Sequence record: PP449093.1
From: Escherichia coli phage phiS
Direction: 5' to 3' (one strand)
DNA length: 64,000 bases
Below the pieces are notes generated by a model. It saw only the letters and a program-made list of their open reading frames with translations. It had not been told where the DNA came from and ran no database searches. The translations under genes were made by a program, and so were the position numbers. This document shows, piece after piece, positions 10,574 to 20,059 of this stretch. Each line of letters opens with the position of its first letter. The first letter of the stretch is position 1.

Positions 10574-11332
10574 ATGAAAAACATTATCGCTGCTATCGTT
10601 CTTTCTGCTACTGCTTTCGGTGCTAACGCTGCGTCCTTTGATTGCGCTAAAGCGACTACCAAATCAGAGAAGTTTATTTGTGCTAACGAGTCTATCTCCG
10701 CGCTGGATTCGAAACTTCATGAAGTATATGTTAAGGCTGTTAAGATTGATCCGTCTCTTAAACAAGAGCAACGCAACTGGAATAAAACTGTTCGTGATAC
10801 AATGATCAATATCGGGCAGATTCAGCCACTGGAGGCTGTATACAACGCTCAAATCCAAAACTTGATGAATGCATTACCTAAAGAAGAAACCGCGTCAGAA
10901 AGCGATTCAGAGACTTCTGTGAAGGTTGACGAAGAACAACCGAAACAGGAAGAAAAAGTGGTGGAAGAACCGAAGGTCGAAACTTTTACCTATCAATGCA
11001 CCGTTCGTTATGAGTGGAGTATGAAAGATGGAATTTCCACAAAAATTAAAGAAGCGCCACTGTATGCCAAATATGGAAATCAACCAGGAGATCTTAAAGT
11101 AACCATTAAAAATGGGAAGATGGTTGATTTTGTATACATTGATGAATACAACGTACACAAAGCAAACGTACAAGAAACCGTTATGACTAAAGGCGGGTTT
11201 TATAAGAATGTTGGCAAGAAAGATCTATATGAATACTCCGTTTTCGAACCAAACGACGGAACTATTCGATTTGAAAAACGTCATCCTACATTCGGTGGCG
11301 CAATTGATGTAGATCAATACGTTTGCAAGTAA
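10574..11332 (+). CDS. secreted protein with N-terminal LprI/DUF1311-like (lysozyme-inhibitor family) domain
   Basis: Signal peptide MKNIIAAIVLSATAFGANA; CxxAxTxxExxIC..LD..L..Y motif; acidic linker; C-terminal domain of about 120 aa. Confidence 0.55.
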   Translation: MKNIIAAIVLSATAFGANAASFDCAKATTKSEKFICANESISALDSKLHEVYVKAVKIDPSLKQEQRNWNKTVRDTMINIGQIQPLEAVYNAQIQNLMNALPKEETASESDSETSVKVDEEQPKQEEKVVEEPKVETFTYQCTVRYEWSMKDGISTKIKEAPLYAKYGNQPGDLKVTIKNGKMVDFVYIDEYNVHKANVQETVMTKGGFYKNVGKKDLYEYSVFEPNDGTIRFEKRHPTFGGAIDVDQYVCK

Positions 11333-13597: not shown

Positions 13598-13626
13598 GAA
13601 GGGGAGGCCGAAAGGCTTCCCCTTTA
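13598..13626. terminator. bidirectional terminator hairpin between convergent genes
   Basis: AAGGGGAGGCC-GAAA-GGCTTCCCCTT with A/T runs on both sides. Confidence 0.6.
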
Positions 13627-13628
13627 AG

Positions 13629-14285
13629 TTATCTAATCCTTCCGAGGATTCTGGCAGATTGATTGCAAAGAGTATCTAAATTCTCAATGTCAATATCCGG
13701 TTTATTCTTCCATGCAATGGAGATACTACCAGAATAGACATTATCGAGATTGAATATAGGACAAGAATACATAACCCCTATATCGATACTCTCTAATTTC
13801 TTTTCTCTTGATGGAATATACTGGAAATCTTTATCGGTAAAATAGGATTTACCTAAAAGATGTCTACGATATTCTTCACTCGTTTTATTGATAGGGAATC
13901 CGCCTAAATTTTTTTCATCGATTGTATGCGGTAGCTTTCCTTCATATGCCACCAAATCAACAAAATAGTTTAGGTTTTTCGGACGAAAACTAAAAACAGC
14001 AGAAAAATCGGCATCAGCCGACACATGAACTATCTGTAACTGCTCCTGTGCTGCATTATCAAAATTGCGGTCTTTCTCTACCTGGAGAACGTGAGCATAA
14101 GTCTCATAACGAGTCTCTTTATAAAGCGCAAATAACTCGTTTTTACTATAAACGACAAATGCTAATATAGACAACACGACGGCAGCAAAAACACGAAGTA
14201 CGAGCAACTCCGTGCTTTTAGTTGTGAAAATAGCGCGCAGGACATTTGAGATAGCAAAGTCTTTCCCTTTTTCAGAAACTTGCAT
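13629..14285 (-). CDS. t: holin
   Basis: 218 aa; resembles T4 holin T from memory (EQLQIVH.S.DADFSAVYSFRPKNLNYFVD..AYEGKLP, MYSCP.FNLDN.Y.G, ARILGR). Confidence 0.9.
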   Translation of the reverse strand: MQVSEKGKDFAISNVLRAIFTTKSTELLVLRVFAAVVLSILAFVVYSKNELFALYKETRYETYAHVLQVEKDRNFDNAAQEQLQIVHVSADADFSAVFSFRPKNLNYFVDLVAYEGKLPHTIDEKNLGGFPINKTSEEYRRHLLGKSYFTDKDFQYIPSREKKLESIDIGVMYSCPIFNLDNVYSGSISIAWKNKPDIDIENLDTLCNQSARILGRIR

Positions 14286-14318
14286 ATAATGCCCTAAGAT
14301 AACTATGACAGTGTACTC

Positions 14319-14558
14319 TTATTTAGGTAGTTGACTATCACTAGGTTTATCTTGCTCGTTGCTATCTTCTGACTGATCTTTATTAAACTCCTTATAAAGT
14401 TCTTCCACAAAACGATCATCAATTGGCGTATTGGTATAAGCCGCAAGACGACGAGCGCAATAGAAGAAAATTTTAGTGAGCATTTTTTCACTAATTAACT
14501 TTGACAATAATTTCATTCCGAAATTAGACAAAGCACCAATGACGATATTATAGACCAT
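14319..14558 (-). CDS. hypothetical small protein (79 aa), hydrophobic N-terminus, acidic C-terminus
   Basis: Minus-strand ORF with AAGGAG SD 7 nt upstream; between holin and gp38. Confidence 0.5.
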   Translation of the reverse strand: MVYNIVIGALSNFGMKLLSKLISEKMLTKIFFYCARRLAAYTNTPIDDRFVEELYKEFNKDQSEDSNEQDKPSDSQLPK

Positions 14559-14622
14559 AGCCGTTTCTCCTTAGTAGTTTCCCTTCCGTGGGAGTTTTCC
14601 TTAATTCTTTTTATAATTAAGT

Positions 14623-15405
14623 CTAAACAGCCGGTCCGTAAATGGCTCCGCGATTTTGCCACGTTGGGGCAGACCCTATAACAGCATAACCGGCATCGCC
14701 GCCATTGTATTCATATCCTTGACCACGAATATTACATCTACCTCCTGCGGCGCCTACCTCACCACCGCTTCCGCCATTATAGACATCGTTCATGGACCCC
14801 GAACCAGGCGCATAAAGAGTACCAGCAGTTGCGCCTGATTGCATGTTGGCAGATCCACCAGCAGCACCAAACGGACGACCGCCGCCACCACCAAAAGTTA
14901 ATTTCATTGGTTTCGTAGGAGAATAATACCCACCACCTCCACCGCCACCGCCGCCAGCGATAGCACCGCCATTATTAATTCTTAGCCTCCCACCAATATC
15001 ATTTTGAATACAATGACCCCCAGCTGATCCAGGACTATTGCTACCGCCATTCCCTCCACGACCATACATCGTTACGCCATGTATATTCAACTGAACATAT
15101 TCATTCGGTGTATCTCCATACATAAAGAATAAAGGAACATCTTTAGAATATGATACTAAATCTCCAGTGATATTAAACACTATAGGTGTACTACCTGCCT
15201 CAAAGCATCTATCACGGAACCACTGACCATTGAAGTTATGGTCTGCTCCAAGTGTATGAATAATTTCTCGCGAGCGACCTGCAAATTGACTCATCCAGCA
15301 AGGAACACCCAATCTTAATTGACCAGCCGCTTGACTCATCCATCGTTGTCCTGTTTCATTTACGGATGAACTACCAATCCAACCAGGAACACCAACTACT
15401 GCCAT
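14623..15405 (-). CDS. 38: T2-type receptor-recognising tail fibre adhesin gp38
   Basis: N-terminus [51 protein letters not shown] as recalled for T2-family gp38; glycine-rich motifs (GGGGGGGGG) separating variable segments. Confidence 0.9.
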
Positions 15406-15441
15406 AATTTATACTCCAAAGGGGGCATTGCCCCCTTGTTG

Positions 15442-18342
15442 TTAGAATTTAAAATATTTACTAATTTTGCGAGCAATTTTAGTGAAGAAAGGAGTTTTCA
15501 ATTCTTTAATTTCTTCACTCATTTCCTGAATAGCCTTAATTAAAAGAGCATTCACAGCAGAGTTAGAAATTGTCAGAACATCGTCTGGATTATCAAGATT
15601 GCCAACCTTTGAAGATTTTACAGCTTCCGGTAATATTTCTTGTAAATCCTGTGCGATAATGCCGATCTCGTGACCGATAATTTCACGGTCTTTAAGAGAT
15701 TTAACTTTATCGTAAGTTTTCACTTTCAGTTTGCCAATTAAACTTAACGCATTTCCTGTATAATCTTCTATATTGTCTTTAAGGCGACGATCTGAACGAA
15801 TATACACATCGTTAAAGCTACCGTTTCCGGTTGCGTTAAATTCACCGCTTGCGTGGAATTGGAACTCCCCAGCTTGAACATGAAGAACAGCGGCTGCGGT
15901 ATTATTACCATCACCGGGACAATGAACGTCCATAGCAGCGATATATTGACGCCCCCAATCAACCGCTTTCCAAACAGCATGAGCACTGTCAATACTTTTC
16001 TGGCAGTCAACCAACAAACCAGCAGGGCGGTCTCTCCATGAAACATATGCACCACCATCAACTTCACCACGGATAAGTCCTTGATCTGCGGCATAAGGAA
16101 CACGCCCTTCCAGTTGAATCATTGCGCCCTTAAAGTGATGACTAAATGGTCCACCGTGGTTATTGCGAATATGTAAAATACCCTCATCGGTCGCCCAAAT
16201 AACAGCCTTTTCTGTTTCGCTAGCATCTCTAAACCAGATATGGCGTGCACCAGTTGAGTTTTTGATGGTTATTCCATTAGGTCCACGCACGGTCAAAGCA
16301 CCGGATACATCAAATAAAACGGTGTCATCTGTTCTACGTTCCGTATAGAAGTGATAACCTTTGGAATCACCGATTTCCATTACTGCCGCGCGTCCAACTT
16401 CTGAATTTCCCCAATTGTTGATAGAGAATCGTTCAGAGCTATTATTCATCTGATTTAGGTATAATGTACCGTCAGTGAAGGTTTCGCCAAAGAATCTGGT
16501 TTTAACGCCGTTAGTACCCCCCACGCGTTCAAATTCAGCCAAGAAACCTTTGGAATCTCGCATACTCAAAACGTTATTGCGTCCTGTATTACTGTTACCC
16601 CAATGGATTAATTCAATATAGTCCATTGACTGACGAGACCCTGATCTAAACACCATATTATCTTCGATGCGGGTGCTACCATCAATTCCCAGATGTAAAC
16701 AGCGTGCGGTAGCTGTGCCACCTAGATCTAATCCACCTTCGGCGAAATCATAGCTGAATGGTCTACGAGTATTCCAATTTCCAAAAGAATCTTTTAAATC
16801 GGTAGTCAGTATATGGAAACTAGTACCATCATTTCTAAAAATTAAGCCATAATTGCCACCTTTAACAGCCAAACGAGCATTTTCAGATAATGCAACTTCG
16901 CTATTCATTACAATTTTCTGGCCTTTACCGCCAGTAATATGCAATTCACCGTTTTCGATCAAGTTTATTGAGTTTTGACCGTTATCGTTCCACCAAATAA
17001 AATCTTTGGTCGTCAAATCACCAAAACCAAACCAGCCATTACGAACATCTTGACCAGTGCGATAATCCATAAAATTAAAATGGCTTGCTTCGTTTGGTCC
17101 TCGACGAATATCAATACCAGCATTAGAACCGGAACCTAAGCCACCATCGATGGTCAATCTACGAATATGCAAACCGGTTACAGCCGAAAGCAATAATTGT
17201 TGGGTTACATCGGTATATCCAGTAGCAAGACGATAATTTTGGTCATCAACACTTTCGTGCCAGATAGTGGCAGGACCAGAGCTTCTAAACCGACGTAACA
17301 TCTTTTTAGCATTTGTCGGTTGTTCGTTCATATGCTCAATGTCATATTGTCCTTGATGGTTGCCAGCAAAATTTAATGTTCCACGGTTACTGAAACTGTT
17401 AAAAGAGCGTATTGTATATGCATCATAGATATGATCAGCTACAGGTTTTTCGCCTACATATTCAGGTCGATCAAGTACAGTTAAATTAACATCGCTGGAC
17501 GCTTGATATTCAGCCATTACCATATTAGTAAATTCGAAGTAACATGCATAGATATCATAAGTGTCATCACCTGTATTAATGGCACAAAATTGATTTTCGT
17601 AACCGGAAACATGATGATACGCAACAAAGTTAATTCCTTTAGGCGAACCGTTGCTAGTCCTTATAACAAGTTCAATAATATTACATTGTCCAGTTCGTCC
17701 TACGTTCCACCCATTTCCACCAATCAATCTAATTTTCAAGCCACGTCCGTCATTTTGCGGAATAAAGGCGGTAGCAATTTTAAACCATCCACTTTCTACA
17801 CCAAAGTTGATGGTCTTCTGGAACATCCGATCTACTTCTTGCTTGCTGTATACATTCAATTCCGACGGACTAGGCTTATCTCCTTCGTGATACATGCGAT
17901 ATGAATATGCTAATACACCATCGGCATTATAACCATAGGTTTTTACAGTAGGGACAATGCTAGAACCATAAGTAAAATCAAACCCACGAGCATGATTGAT
18001 ACCGCTAGGATGGGGAATATGCAAAGCAAGTGCTAGATGACCATCCATATCATTAGTGCGAAATGCCCCGAATTTGTCAAGATTTCGTGCGGTCGGATCA
18101 TCGAAATAGTTTGCGGTATTACTCCACACAAGGTCACCCACAACCACGCGACCGTTTACATTAAAGCCTTTGTCATAAACAGGAGGGCAGCTTAAATTAA
18201 CAATTTGCCCATCATCATTTTTTGTAAGCAGATATTGGTCTGCTAAGTTAATTGCCAACTCTCCCGGATTCATCGTACCAGCATCCGGTTTACGTCCGGC
18301 TGCGCTAGTGCGTTTAAACTGGATTCTGTTTAAATCTGCCAT
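15442..18342 (-). CDS. 37: long tail fibre distal subunit gp37 with C-terminal intramolecular-chaperone-like domain
   Basis: N-terminus matches T4 gp37 pattern (M.DL..IQFKR...G..P...GELAINL.D); C-terminal SDRRLKDNIED motif resembles peptidase S74 self-cleaving chaperone domains. Confidence 0.85.
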   Translation of the reverse strand: MADLNRIQFKRTSAAGRKPDAGTMNPGELAINLADQYLLTKNDDGQIVNLSCPPVYDKGFNVNGRVVVGDLVWSNTANYFDDPTARNLDKFGAFRTNDMDGHLALALHIPHPSGINHARGFDFTYGSSIVPTVKTYGYNADGVLAYSYRMYHEGDKPSPSELNVYSKQEVDRMFQKTINFGVESGWFKIATAFIPQNDGRGLKIRLIGGNGWNVGRTGQCNIIELVIRTSNGSPKGINFVAYHHVSGYENQFCAINTGDDTYDIYACYFEFTNMVMAEYQASSDVNLTVLDRPEYVGEKPVADHIYDAYTIRSFNSFSNRGTLNFAGNHQGQYDIEHMNEQPTNAKKMLRRFRSSGPATIWHESVDDQNYRLATGYTDVTQQLLLSAVTGLHIRRLTIDGGLGSGSNAGIDIRRGPNEASHFNFMDYRTGQDVRNGWFGFGDLTTKDFIWWNDNGQNSINLIENGELHITGGKGQKIVMNSEVALSENARLAVKGGNYGLIFRNDGTSFHILTTDLKDSFGNWNTRRPFSYDFAEGGLDLGGTATARCLHLGIDGSTRIEDNMVFRSGSRQSMDYIELIHWGNSNTGRNNVLSMRDSKGFLAEFERVGGTNGVKTRFFGETFTDGTLYLNQMNNSSERFSINNWGNSEVGRAAVMEIGDSKGYHFYTERRTDDTVLFDVSGALTVRGPNGITIKNSTGARHIWFRDASETEKAVIWATDEGILHIRNNHGGPFSHHFKGAMIQLEGRVPYAADQGLIRGEVDGGAYVSWRDRPAGLLVDCQKSIDSAHAVWKAVDWGRQYIAAMDVHCPGDGNNTAAAVLHVQAGEFQFHASGEFNATGNGSFNDVYIRSDRRLKDNIEDYTGNALSLIGKLKVKTYDKVKSLKDREIIGHEIGIIAQDLQEILPEAVKSSKVGNLDNPDDVLTISNSAVNALLIKAIQEMSEEIKELKTPFFTKIARKISKYFKF

Positions 18343-18410
18343 TTTATAAAATCCTTAAACGGTTATTAGAATAATATTATTTAGAAAAGCGGGGATTCTC
18401 CCCGCTAGAA

Positions 18411-19901
18411 TTAGAAAGTACCAAAATCAATTACCGCATTGAGCGGAACAGCGCCAACCTCATCAGGAGTTGGTTTATGTCCTTCGTGGTATAATTCAAA
18501 GGTATCGGTGTCCTGAGTATTGCCACGAGATTTAACGAAAATAATTTTAGAATCATGTGTGATTCCTAGTTTCTCGTGCGCTTTAATATCGCTAACACGA
18601 TGAATCATTGCTGTACCATTTAAGCTATTAAGTCCAGCGTAGCAATTATCACCATTATAGTTAGCTTCGGCTGTATGAACGCCGTTTGCAGCAGGAACCG
18701 TCAACGCACCTGTCATGGTATCGCCAGTCACATTAACATAGCGAGCATCAGCCAATTTACGGTGATCTACATAGTTCCATGCGGTCCACGAGTTACCGGA
18801 ACAAGAACGCCAGCAAACAGGATGATTAATTGATTCAGGGTAATAGACCTGAACAACTCGAACAGTACCAACCGCATCTTCCGGTCGATATACCATCAAA
18901 ACACCGTTATAATAGCTATCAGATGGTTTATTTTGTCCGGCTTCGGCATTCTCCACCCTGAACATACCGCGATTAATAAGGGTATTCCAATCAACATTTC
19001 CAATGATAGTTGGACTAGCTACCATTGCTTTTTTCTCAAAGTAGCTCAATCTAACCAGATCATTAGGTCCAGATGGATCGGTTGTCACAAGCATTTTGGG
19101 CGCTTGCAAATTACCTTCCATAATGTCACCAGCACGCTTAACTTGCGCGTCATTGGTGACATTACCCAATCCTACGTCGGCTTTAGTAGGCTTGTTGTTG
19201 GTATGATAAAAATTACCTTCACTACCGTTAACAAAAATTTTAGGCTCGTTCTTGCTACGAAATACTAAAGTATCAAGAACGTTTCCATAATAAATGTTTT
19301 CAGCATCGAAAGTAATAAAATCCCGATCCCTCGCAACCAGCTTAGAATCAACCGACAATTTAAAATTAACCGTGTTTAAATTATAAGTTCCGGTGATTGT
19401 ATCGCCTTGTCTGGAAACCAAATCCAAATCATTGTTTGTTGGCTTATTAACAGGACTATAGACGCGTTGACCAGTGTCTTTAATGGTTGTCCCTTCGATG
19501 GTCCCTTTAGTTTTAAAATCACCTGTGGTAGTGTCAATATAAGCCATGATAACATCATCACGAGCATTAACAAAACCAATAGATTTCCACGAATGCAGAC
19601 CCCAACTTACGCCATCAAAGTTAGCCGCATCACTATTTCCTTTAAAGATCCCGTTCTTTTTGGTTTCTCCACCGGATGCGCTACCTACGCTTAAACCTTC
19701 CTCAAAATGGACCTGCTTTTGAAATGTGCCACCGTCTTTAGCACTAACAGCATCAAAATCGGCAGCCGAAGGTTTATCAAAAGCGGTATAGATTTTATGA
19801 CCTTTGTAGAAAAGCTGATCCCCCGCTGGCTGGATCGTCAAGTTTCCTTGCGTCCAAATGGGAGATCCGCCTACAGTAGATCCATGTTTCAAATCTGCCA
19901 T
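18411..19901 (-). CDS. 36: long tail fibre distal connector gp36 (extended, 496 aa)
   Basis: N-terminus MADLKHGSTVGGSPIWTQGN resembles T4 gp36; position between gp35 and gp37. Confidence 0.8.
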   Translation of the reverse strand: MADLKHGSTVGGSPIWTQGNLTIQPAGDQLFYKGHKIYTAFDKPSAADFDAVSAKDGGTFQKQVHFEEGLSVGSASGGETKKNGIFKGNSDAANFDGVSWGLHSWKSIGFVNARDDVIMAYIDTTTGDFKTKGTIEGTTIKDTGQRVYSPVNKPTNNDLDLVSRQGDTITGTYNLNTVNFKLSVDSKLVARDRDFITFDAENIYYGNVLDTLVFRSKNEPKIFVNGSEGNFYHTNNKPTKADVGLGNVTNDAQVKRAGDIMEGNLQAPKMLVTTDPSGPNDLVRLSYFEKKAMVASPTIIGNVDWNTLINRGMFRVENAEAGQNKPSDSYYNGVLMVYRPEDAVGTVRVVQVYYPESINHPVCWRSCSGNSWTAWNYVDHRKLADARYVNVTGDTMTGALTVPAANGVHTAEANYNGDNCYAGLNSLNGTAMIHRVSDIKAHEKLGITHDSKIIFVKSRGNTQDTDTFELYHEGHKPTPDEVGAVPLNAVIDFGTF

Positions 19902-19934
19902 AAAGTAACCTCAAAAATTAGTTATAGTTCCGAG

Positions 19935-19942
19935 TATTTATA
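19935..19942 (-). promoter_or_regulatory. T4-type late promoter TATAAATA upstream of gp36
   Basis: Plus-strand TATTTATA = minus-strand TATAAATA, about 34 nt upstream of the gp36 ATG. Confidence 0.5.
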
Positions 19943-20059
19943 GAATGTTAACAAAATATCGCTTCGCGACGTGCCGTAGGCACTGACTATTTTTTAACCG
20001 AAACAAATTTTCTATTATTCTAAAGATCTTTCTTCGTTTTGGTTATGTTTTAACCAACT

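Follow-up and report, generated by a model that had tools for sequence, protein, structure and literature searches.

The long tail fiber tip of Escherichia coli phage phiS: a gp37 ending in an S74-type intramolecular chaperone beside a gp38 adhesin of the T2/T6/S16 kind

How is the receptor-binding tip of the long tail fiber built in Escherichia coli phage phiS, and which host molecule would it touch? Two adjacent genes raise this question in the 64,000-nucleotide stretch of DNA that we analyzed (sequence record PP449093.1; hereafter the window). On the minus strand, which carries all features described here, the open reading frame g37 (15442..18342; 966 codons plus stop) encodes a protein of PHROG 1699, long tail fiber distal subunit (E 1e-157). 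The next gene downstream is g38 (14623..15405; 260 codons plus stop), whose product is a monomeric tail-fiber tip adhesin. An exact look-up returned WWV92262.1 for gp37 and WWV92261.1 for gp38, both from phage phiS. We put the probability at about 90% that these proteins form a standard receptor-binding tip of the T2/T6/S16 type.

The C-terminus of gp37 reads ...GNGSFNDVYIR-SDRRLKDNIEDYTG...KYFKF, followed by the stop codon. The sequence-only reading of this locus held that the last 118 residues start with SDRRLKDNIED. The motif is indeed present near the C-terminus, but the interval chosen for it begins one codon early. Positions 15445..15798 comprise 118 codons, of which the first (CGT, 15796-15798) specifies R849, and the serine of the motif is residue 850 (codon 15793-15795). 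Counted from this serine, the module therefore has 117 residues (850-966; 15445..15795). It opens with S850-D-R-R-L-K855 (15778..15795), a serine and a lysine in the Ser/Lys+5 spacing. S850 is predicted to be the nucleophile and the first residue past the scissile bond, and K855, five residues further on, would serve as the general base.

The proposed resemblance of this module to peptidase S74 intramolecular chaperones (IMCs) holds far above chance. Pfam PF13884 (Peptidase_S74) matches gp37 residues 850-909 along its entire length (profile positions 1-58 of 58; E 2.3e-15; 57.0 bits, where the gathering cut-off is 22 bits), and it matches the 118-residue piece alone with E 1e-16. S74 domains sit at the very C-terminus of trimeric fiber or spike proteins, and so does this match, which opens the 117-residue module that closes the 966-residue distal subunit. 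Across 27 homologues with 26-72% identity, the S, D, L, K and N of the gp37 motif are invariant, S850 and K855 among them.

Structural comparisons yield the same class. A profile search of the PDB with the gp37 C-terminus recovered 6f45_A (S16 gp37; 3e-17), the tail fiber 8jov, the autoprocessing domain of MyRF (7dc3) and the IMC of GA-1 (3gud). In 3gud, the first residues of the released chain are SDERHK, aligned with SDRRLK of gp37. A search with the single sequence gave 6f45, 7dc3 and 8jov only; 3gud was reached only by the profile, and 3gw6 only by a fold search. In the IMC fold, short helices and a beta-hairpin core precede a long C-terminal helix. An AlphaFold2 model of the 152-residue C-terminal fragment (pLDDT 80.5) places a helix at 113-149; because it shows one chain of what works as an intertwined trimer, this model can be used to check the fold alone and not the geometry of the active site. 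Its top PDB matches in Foldseek are all IMCs, namely 7dc3 (E 2e-6, TM 0.61), then 3gud and 3gw6 (endoNF), these two with a probability of about 1.0, and unrelated folds all appear at E of 0.7 or above. On the evidence of its sequence, its catalytic motif and the fold predicted for it, the C-terminus of gp37 is an S74-type IMC. Beyond the point where an S74 helix usually stops, the module continues into a basic, aromatic tail of 17 residues (TPFFTKIARKISKYFKF; residues 950-966, 15445..15495) that is present in gp37 of T6, fPS-65, KarlGJung, FL04, MIZ4 and Skers, and is missing in T2 and in more distant S74 domains.

The gene adjoining g37 had been called a glycine-rich, T2-type gp38, and the family is right, although the allele within it is T6-like. 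The protein matches Pfam GP38 (PF05268; E 2.2e-72, 243.9 bits) and Gp38_N (PF21721; E 1.3e-19, 70.3 bits), each with a gathering cut-off of 25 bits, and in the PDB it finds the PP01 gp38 receptor-binding domain (9v85, E 4e-79) and S16 gp38 (6f45_D, E 3e-48). It is an adhesin rather than a T4-type chaperone. The N-terminal attachment domain defined by PF21721 (residues 1-42; 15280..15405) carries W9, W22 and W37, which are invariant among eight gp38 proteins, T2 included; such tryptophan prongs enter pockets on the gp37 tip (PMC7917993). Glycine makes up 23% of the whole protein and 32% of residues 112-260, with runs of nine and five. The receptor-binding end (residues 115-257; 14635..15063), delimited by alignment and by these runs, consists of glycine-rich motifs and the hypervariable segments (HVS) between them. 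The motifs are invariant, and the differences from close T6-type relatives fall nearly all between them. In relatives, these segments set receptor choice (PMC7917993; PMC3157838; PMC12032242; bioRxiv 10.64898/2026.04.02.716166).

The same four sources describe how close relatives complete their tips, in that trimerization is followed by removal of the IMC, and gp38 docks on the bared tip. By homology, we infer a similar course in phiS. The gp37 protein would be synthesized as a 966-residue precursor, and residues 850-966 of three copies would associate to nucleate trimerization and the folding of the preceding beta-structured tip, for which the chaperone would be required. Once the trimer has folded, S850, activated by K855, would attack the R849-S850 bond and free the IMC trimer. 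The predicted mature gp37 (residues 1-849; 15796..18342), delimited by alignment with the S16 cleavage site, would end in ...NDVYIR849, and release of the IMC would bare a flat hydrophobic tip built of ...DVYIR849 strands. This trimeric tip is the likely docking face for one copy of gp38, attached through its N-terminal domain with W9, W22 and W37. The loops between the polyglycine motifs (HVS1-4) would then touch an outer-membrane protein, most likely Tsx to judge from the closest characterized adhesins.

How firm is the choice of Tsx? Aligned with adhesins of known receptor, phiS gp38 is 94% identical to that of FL04, 92% to those of KarlGJung and fPS-65, 88% to that of T6 and 53% to that of T2. 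This places it in the T6-like Tsx clade, such that the term "T2-type" in the sequence-only reading is true as the name of the family. Tsx is the receptor of FL04, FL15 and KarlGJung (Lutz et al. 2025, PMC12032242; BASEL collection), and T6 gp38 is placed among the Tsx-type adhesins (PMC12032242; BASEL collection). The assignment is nevertheless a weak one, because ten residues of gp38 are private to phiS, because a single HVS3 substitution switches another gp38 from OmpF to OmpW (bioRxiv 10.64898/2026.04.02.716166), and because the receptor mapped for fPS-65 in Yersinia is the LPS inner-core heptose (PMC7917993). The private residues (T164, K165, P166, K168, A182, A186, M205, D207, V208 and Y231) all lie in HVS2-4; they are defined by comparison with five of the nearest relatives, among them at least three Tsx users (FL04, KarlGJung and T6). 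HVS2 has been rewritten, with TKPMK where the relatives have FSQMR.

These changes could mean that an unaltered tip architecture presents a gp38 with a non-standard target, either another porin or a loop variant of Tsx, instead of Tsx from E. coli K-12. Besides the clustering of the private residues and the documented effect of single substitutions, the distance to known proteins speaks for this possibility, since the phage collection holds no record that spans the whole of gp38 at more than 93.8% identity. Against it stand the 92-94% overall identity to proven Tsx binders and the finding that gp38 phylogeny predicts the receptor well (PMC12032242). We regard a non-standard target as unlikely, but as the most serious of the alternatives. 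More doubtful still is the proposal that gp38 specificity has shifted off canonical Tsx and that, separately, the 17-residue tail gives the released IMC trimer a second role after cleavage. Tsx is the most likely receptor of phiS gp38, as judged from its sequence.

Is the IMC of phiS gp37 actually removed, and by its own action? Drexler, Riede and Henning are said to have worked on gp37 and gp38 of T2 and T6 in 1986. The motif VYIR/SD (the slash marks the predicted or mapped cut) is common to gp37 of T2, T6, fPS-65, KarlGJung, FL04, MIZ4 and Skers, and T2, T6 and the fPS phages have the wider context VYIR/SDxRLK without any difference. In T2 and T6, the C-terminus of gp37 is proteolytically removed and gp38 then caps the fiber (Trojet et al. 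2011, PMC3157838). The phiS sequence DVYIR/SDRRLK also aligns with the mapped S16 site DLNVS/SDRRIKK, at which, according to PMC7917993 (citing Dunne 2018), the last 113 residues of S16 gp37 are autocleaved to expose the docking face for gp38. By this likeness, phiS gp37 is probably cut at R849/S850, with the IMC freed by autoproteolysis.

Two other fates can be imagined for the module, both of them very improbable. It might be kept in the virion as an uncleaved structural cap, with gp38 binding elsewhere or serving assembly only. Nothing specific favors such a cap, apart from the extra 17-residue basic tail of the T6-type module, and it is difficult to reconcile with a Ser/Lys dyad and surrounding motif that are intact and invariant, with a cleavage context shared with T2 and T6, for which processing is reported, and aligned with the S16 site, and with the full conservation of the docking domain at the N-terminus of gp38, tryptophans included. 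Alternatively, a separate host or phage protease might remove the gp37 C-terminus, in which case the S74 likeness would reflect a folding role only. This fate is equally hard to credit. The cited portion of PMC3157838 credits the original T2 work with establishing the processing and does not state there which protease is responsible, which leaves room for a second enzyme; but self-cleavage by a Ser-Lys dyad is what defines the S74 family, phiS gp37 has the two residues in the right spacing, and PMC7917993, as noted above, reports autocleavage for the S16 homologue. Self-cleavage by the IMC is much the likelier account. Least credible of all is a gp38 that acts as a T4-style assembly chaperone outside the virion while gp37 itself binds the receptor, which the gene name and position would suggest by analogy with T4, but which conflicts with a Pfam scan (E up to 0.01) that returned the adhesin families PF05268 and PF21721 alone, with the homology of gp38 to the crystallized S16 and PP01 adhesins, and with a gp37 that lacks the T4-type distal extension and has a terminal IMC instead.

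The 36-nucleotide spacer between g37 and g38 contains a G+C-rich hairpin (15420..15436), followed by GGAG, the ribosome-binding site of g38. RNA folding gives this hairpin -18.2 kcal/mol (z -2.4), and it is conserved in eight phages, with T2 carrying a compensatory GGGC-UUCG-GCCC version. A promoter and terminator scan of positions 14200-15900 produced counts no higher than those from shuffled sequence, and the hairpin was not called a terminator because only three U residues follow it. The tip cassette is mosaic and sits within a Krischvirus backbone; the IMC and the gp37 distal domain (residues ~620-849) are of the ACG-C40/U115/Skers type, and no GxHxH His-box recombination motifs were found at the gp37 mosaic junction. 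Because gp38 lies about 55 kb away from g37 in some Krischvirus phages (bioRxiv 10.64898/2026.04.02.716166), we searched the whole window for a displaced second gp38 or S74 domain; tblastn with both modules returned self matches only.

Together, these data confirm the observation of a gp37-gp38 tip in phiS and support its interpretation. The arrangement is an ordinary one that has already been described, and for phages of the T2/T6/S16 type it belongs to textbook knowledge. Published work covers how T2-type gp37 is processed, how the IMC acts and how glycine-rich motifs and hypervariable segments function in gp38. The phiS tip opens no new question, and its practical value lies in annotation. 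The deposited labels for gp37 and gp38 are just "tail fiber" and "tail fiber protein"; they could be replaced by a gp37 precursor with an S74 IMC (predicted cut R849/S850) and a gp38 adhesin of the Tsx clade, which would supply the correct mature tip for structural modeling and for host-range engineering.

Among the closest known systems is the gp37-gp38 tip complex of Salmonella phage S16 (PDB 6F45). It shares with phiS the order g37-g38, an IMC that autocleaves (as predicted for phiS) before SDRR[IL]K, and a gp38 in which a tryptophan-bearing N-terminal attachment domain is joined to a polyglycine sandwich that carries variable loops. The two differ in the residues before the cut (DLNVS in S16, DVYIR in phiS) and in the length of the IMC (113 residues in S16 and 117 in phiS, because of the 17-residue basic tail). 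Furthermore, the S16 adhesin binds OmpC, whereas the phiS allele falls in the Tsx clade, and the backbones belong to different genera.

The T2 and T6 tips, for which gp37 processing and gp38 capping are reported, resemble that of phiS in their cleavage context. T6 is the nearer of the two in its gp38, whereas T2 is distant in gp38 and has an IMC without the basic tail; both phages have a Tequatrovirus backbone, unlike the Krischvirus setting of the phiS cassette. Farther away are the endosialidase and GA-1 neck appendage IMCs (3GW6 and 3GUD), C-terminal domains that were reportedly described by Schulz et al. in 2010. They share the Pfam family, the Ser-Lys dyad with serine first and the fold found by Foldseek, but are only 12-17% identical, and they serve tailspikes or appendages rather than a fiber that is later capped by a separate adhesin.

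Other close counterparts are found in Krischvirus FL04, FL15 and MIZ4 and in Tequatrovirus KarlGJung, whose gp38 proteins are 92-94% identical to that of phiS; FL04 and MIZ4 also share the order g37-g38-small ORF-holin. In contrast, the IMCs of FL04, MIZ4 and KarlGJung are only 64-69% identical to the phiS IMC, and phiS gp38 has its ten private substitutions in HVS2-4.

The 966-aa minus-strand ORF at 15442..18342 is assigned to gp37, the distal subunit of the long tail fibre, on the strength of its match to PHROG 1699 ('long tail fiber protein distal subunit', E 1e-157). Its C-terminus reads ...GNGSFNDVYIR SDRRLKDNIEDYTGNALSLIGKLKVKTYDK...EIKELKTPFFTKIARKISKYFKF*, with the stop codon at 15442-15444. 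The sequence-only reading had proposed that the last 118 residues form an S74-like module. The module holds, but its start shifts by one codon: the 118-codon interval 15445..15798 opens with R849 rather than Ser, and SDRRLK begins with Ser850 (codon 15793-15795), so the module counted from this Ser comprises 117 residues (aa 850-966; 15445..15795, minus strand).

Four independent tests agree that this segment is a predicted S74 intramolecular chaperone (IMC). Specifically, the Pfam family PF13884 (Peptidase_S74, 'Chaperone of endosialidase') covers aa 850-909 with all 58 profile positions, with a score of 57 bits where the gathering cut-off is 22 (E 2.3e-15). The catalytic motif is likewise present. 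When the gp37 fragment is aligned with 26 database homologues (26-72% identity), S850, D851, L854, K855 and N857 (S36, D37, L40, K41 and N43 of the fragment) are among the columns without variation, and so are three positions in the GxIAQ motif, G894, A897 and Q898. On this alignment S850 and K855 are assigned as the Ser-Lys dyad of the family, in which Lys lies five residues past Ser. The solved structures found with a profile built from the alignment are 6f45_A (S16 gp37, E 3e-17), 8jov (a tail fibre, 5e-14), 7dc3 (MyRF autoprocessing domain, 1.6e-10) and 3gud (IMC of the GA-1 neck appendage, E 3e-3). The crystallised 3gud chain, already released, starts at SDERHK, which aligns with SDRRLK of gp37. 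Finally, an AlphaFold2 model of aa 815-966 (mean pLDDT 80.5) predicts a fold of short helices and two beta-hairpins that ends in a long helix. Its top matches in the PDB are IMC structures only (7dc3, E 2e-6, TM 0.61; 3gud; and the endosialidase IMC 3gw6), and all further matches have E values above 0.7.

The IMC ends in a basic, aromatic tail of 17 residues, TPFFTKIARKISKYFKF (aa 950-966; 15445-15495, minus strand), which extends beyond the point where the S74 helix normally ends. This tail is common to T6-type gp37 proteins and is missing from T2 and from distant S74 domains.

The sequence around the putative cut, NDVYIR↓SDRRLK, has close counterparts in T2 (VYIR↓SDIRLK), MIZ4 (VYIR↓SDDRLK), Skers (VYIR↓SDRRLK), and T6, fPS-65, KarlGJung and FL04 (VYIR↓SDSRL[K/N]). 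In S16, the last 113 residues of gp37 are reported to be autocleaved after trimerisation at DLNVS↓SDRRIKK, which exposes the face on which gp38 docks (PMC7917993, summarising Dunne et al. 2018). For T2 and T6, Trojet et al. (PMC3157838, citing Drexler, Riede and Henning 1986) report that proteolysis removes the C-terminus of gp37 and that gp38 then caps the fibre. By homology, the DVYIR↓SD.RLK arrangement in the window points to a precursor that would yield gp37(1-849) and a released IMC(850-966). The proposals that the module instead persists as an uncleaved cap, or that a separate protease cuts the gp37 C-terminus, both have little or no support. The T6 record AF052605.1 reads SDSRLNINK, with Asn where all other sequences have the catalytic Lys, and carries an X a few residues upstream; the Asn is probably a sequencing error of this 1998 entry and not a true loss of the dyad.

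After a 36-nt spacer, the next gene (14623..15405, minus strand) encodes the 260-aa gp38, which the earlier reading had described as a glycine-rich adhesin of the T2 type. This description is borne out. The protein matches Pfam families GP38 (PF05268, E 2.2e-72) and Gp38_N (PF21721, aa 1-42, E 1.3e-19), and, among adhesins with crystal structures, those of PP01 (9V85, E 4e-79; identified as PP01 gp38 in PMC12892980) and S16 (6F45_D, E 3e-48). These matches assign gp38 to the adhesin type, and the rival view that it is a T4-style chaperone was rejected on the same grounds, retaining little or no support. Glycine makes up 23% of the protein and 32% of its C-terminal 149 residues, including G9 and G5 runs. 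W9, W22, W37 and every Gly motif are invariant among eight gp38 proteins (window, FL04, MIZ4, fPS-65, KarlGJung, T6, Skers and T2).

Among adhesins of characterised receptor, the comparison suggested by the sequence-only reading, the closest are those of the Tsx users FL04 (94% identity) and KarlGJung (92%); identities to the other proteins are 93% (MIZ4), 92% (fPS-65), 88% (T6), 69% (Skers) and 53% (T2). Tsx is the published receptor of KarlGJung, and Lutz et al. (2025, PMC12032242) report that FL04 and FL15 require it and that the receptor is predictable from gp38 phylogeny, which together make Tsx our best guess for the window protein. This guess carries caveats. Compared with FL04, MIZ4, fPS-65, KarlGJung and T6, the window allele has ten residues of its own (T164, K165, P166, K168, A182, A186, M205, D207, V208 and Y231), and all ten fall in hypervariable segments HVS2-4, between the Gly-rich motifs. 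No record in the phage collection is more than 93.8% identical over the whole of gp38. In another gp38, one substitution in HVS3 (Q206L) reportedly changes the receptor from OmpF to OmpW (bioRxiv 10.64898/2026.04.02.716166).

The g37-g38 spacer holds a G+C-rich hairpin, A-GGGGGC-AAU-GCCCCC-U (15420-15436, minus strand), directly before the GGAG ribosome-binding site of g38, which starts at 15405. The hairpin is kept in eight T-even-type phages with a variable loop, T2 has a compensatory GGGC-UUCG-GCCC stem-loop instead, and the equivalent site in fPS-65 is annotated as a terminator. It is likely an element of mRNA stability or processing, or a weak terminator. Downstream of g38, also on the minus strand, lie a 79-aa ORF (14319..14558; PHROG 402, unknown function, E 5e-20) and holin gene t (13629..14285; PHROG 860, E 1e-87). 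The 79-aa ORF is conserved at this place in Krischvirus MIZ4, Skers and FL04 and is absent from the g38-holin position in all five annotated Tequatrovirus records (fPS-65, KarlGJung, T2, ACG-C40 and U115); it may be the RB49 'small ORF of unknown function' in the g38 position (Trojet et al. 2011, PMC3157838). In a block of small ORFs on the plus strand, upstream of the holin, one of 252 aa (10574-11332) begins with a sequence resembling a signal peptide, MKNIIAAIVLSATAFGANAASFDC..., continues with an acidic middle part rich in Lys and Glu, and may encode a secreted or periplasmic phage protein.

Outside the tip cassette, the window is assigned to a Krischvirus (RB49/JSE-like) genome, with 20000-44000 about 95% identical to kaaroe, JSE and FL04. 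Affiliation changes were mapped within 13600-19950. The holin and 79-aa ORF (13600-14612) are 97% identical to Krischvirus Skers, and against Tequatrovirus holin genes a single 168-bp stretch aligns at ~71%. In turn, gp38 and gp37 aa ~613-966 (14633-16505) are 90.5% identical to Tequatrovirus U115, and the N-terminal part of gp37 with gp36 (16487-19950) is 91.7% identical to Krischvirus FL20. By these alignments the fibre tip is a Tequatrovirus-like mosaic between Krischvirus flanks, with an outer breakpoint near 16487-16505. At an inner breakpoint, 15828 (gp37 aa 839), the T6, fPS-65, KarlGJung, FL04 and MIZ4 alignments end, ten residues ahead of the cut site, a position corresponding to the 'tight cut' of PMC7917993. 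At another, 14932, the ACG-C40 alignment ends within gp38, in its G9 run. At the protein level the IMC is 100% identical to that of ACG-C40, and the receptor-binding half of gp38 is assigned to a lineage other than this ACG-C40-like IMC. Mosaicism of this kind at the long-tail-fibre locus is described by Trojet et al. (PMC3157838). In the window g38 adjoins g37, an arrangement shared with FL04, MIZ4 and Skers. Five other phages of Krischvirus have gp38 ~55 kb from g37, according to a 2026 preprint (bioRxiv 10.64898/2026.04.02.716166). A search for a second gp38 copy within the window found none.

The original finding is correct but ordinary. Its value lies in a sharper annotation of two generically named proteins, whose exact sequences in Escherichia coli phage phiS are WWV92262.1 (gp37) and WWV92261.1 (gp38), with no more than 'tail fiber protein' and 'tail fiber' as names, and in a testable guess at the receptor. 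The DVYIR↓SD.RLK arrangement at the cut is the same as in the fPS phages, whose aligned site is DVYIR↓SDGRLKI (Salem et al. 2021, PMC7917993) and for which a flat gp37 tip is predicted from the DVYIR strands, with the conserved gp38 Trp residues inserting there (PMC7917993). By every property testable from sequence and model, the gp37 IMC and gp38 are members of the S16/T2/T6 system, and the pair would work as it does in those phages.
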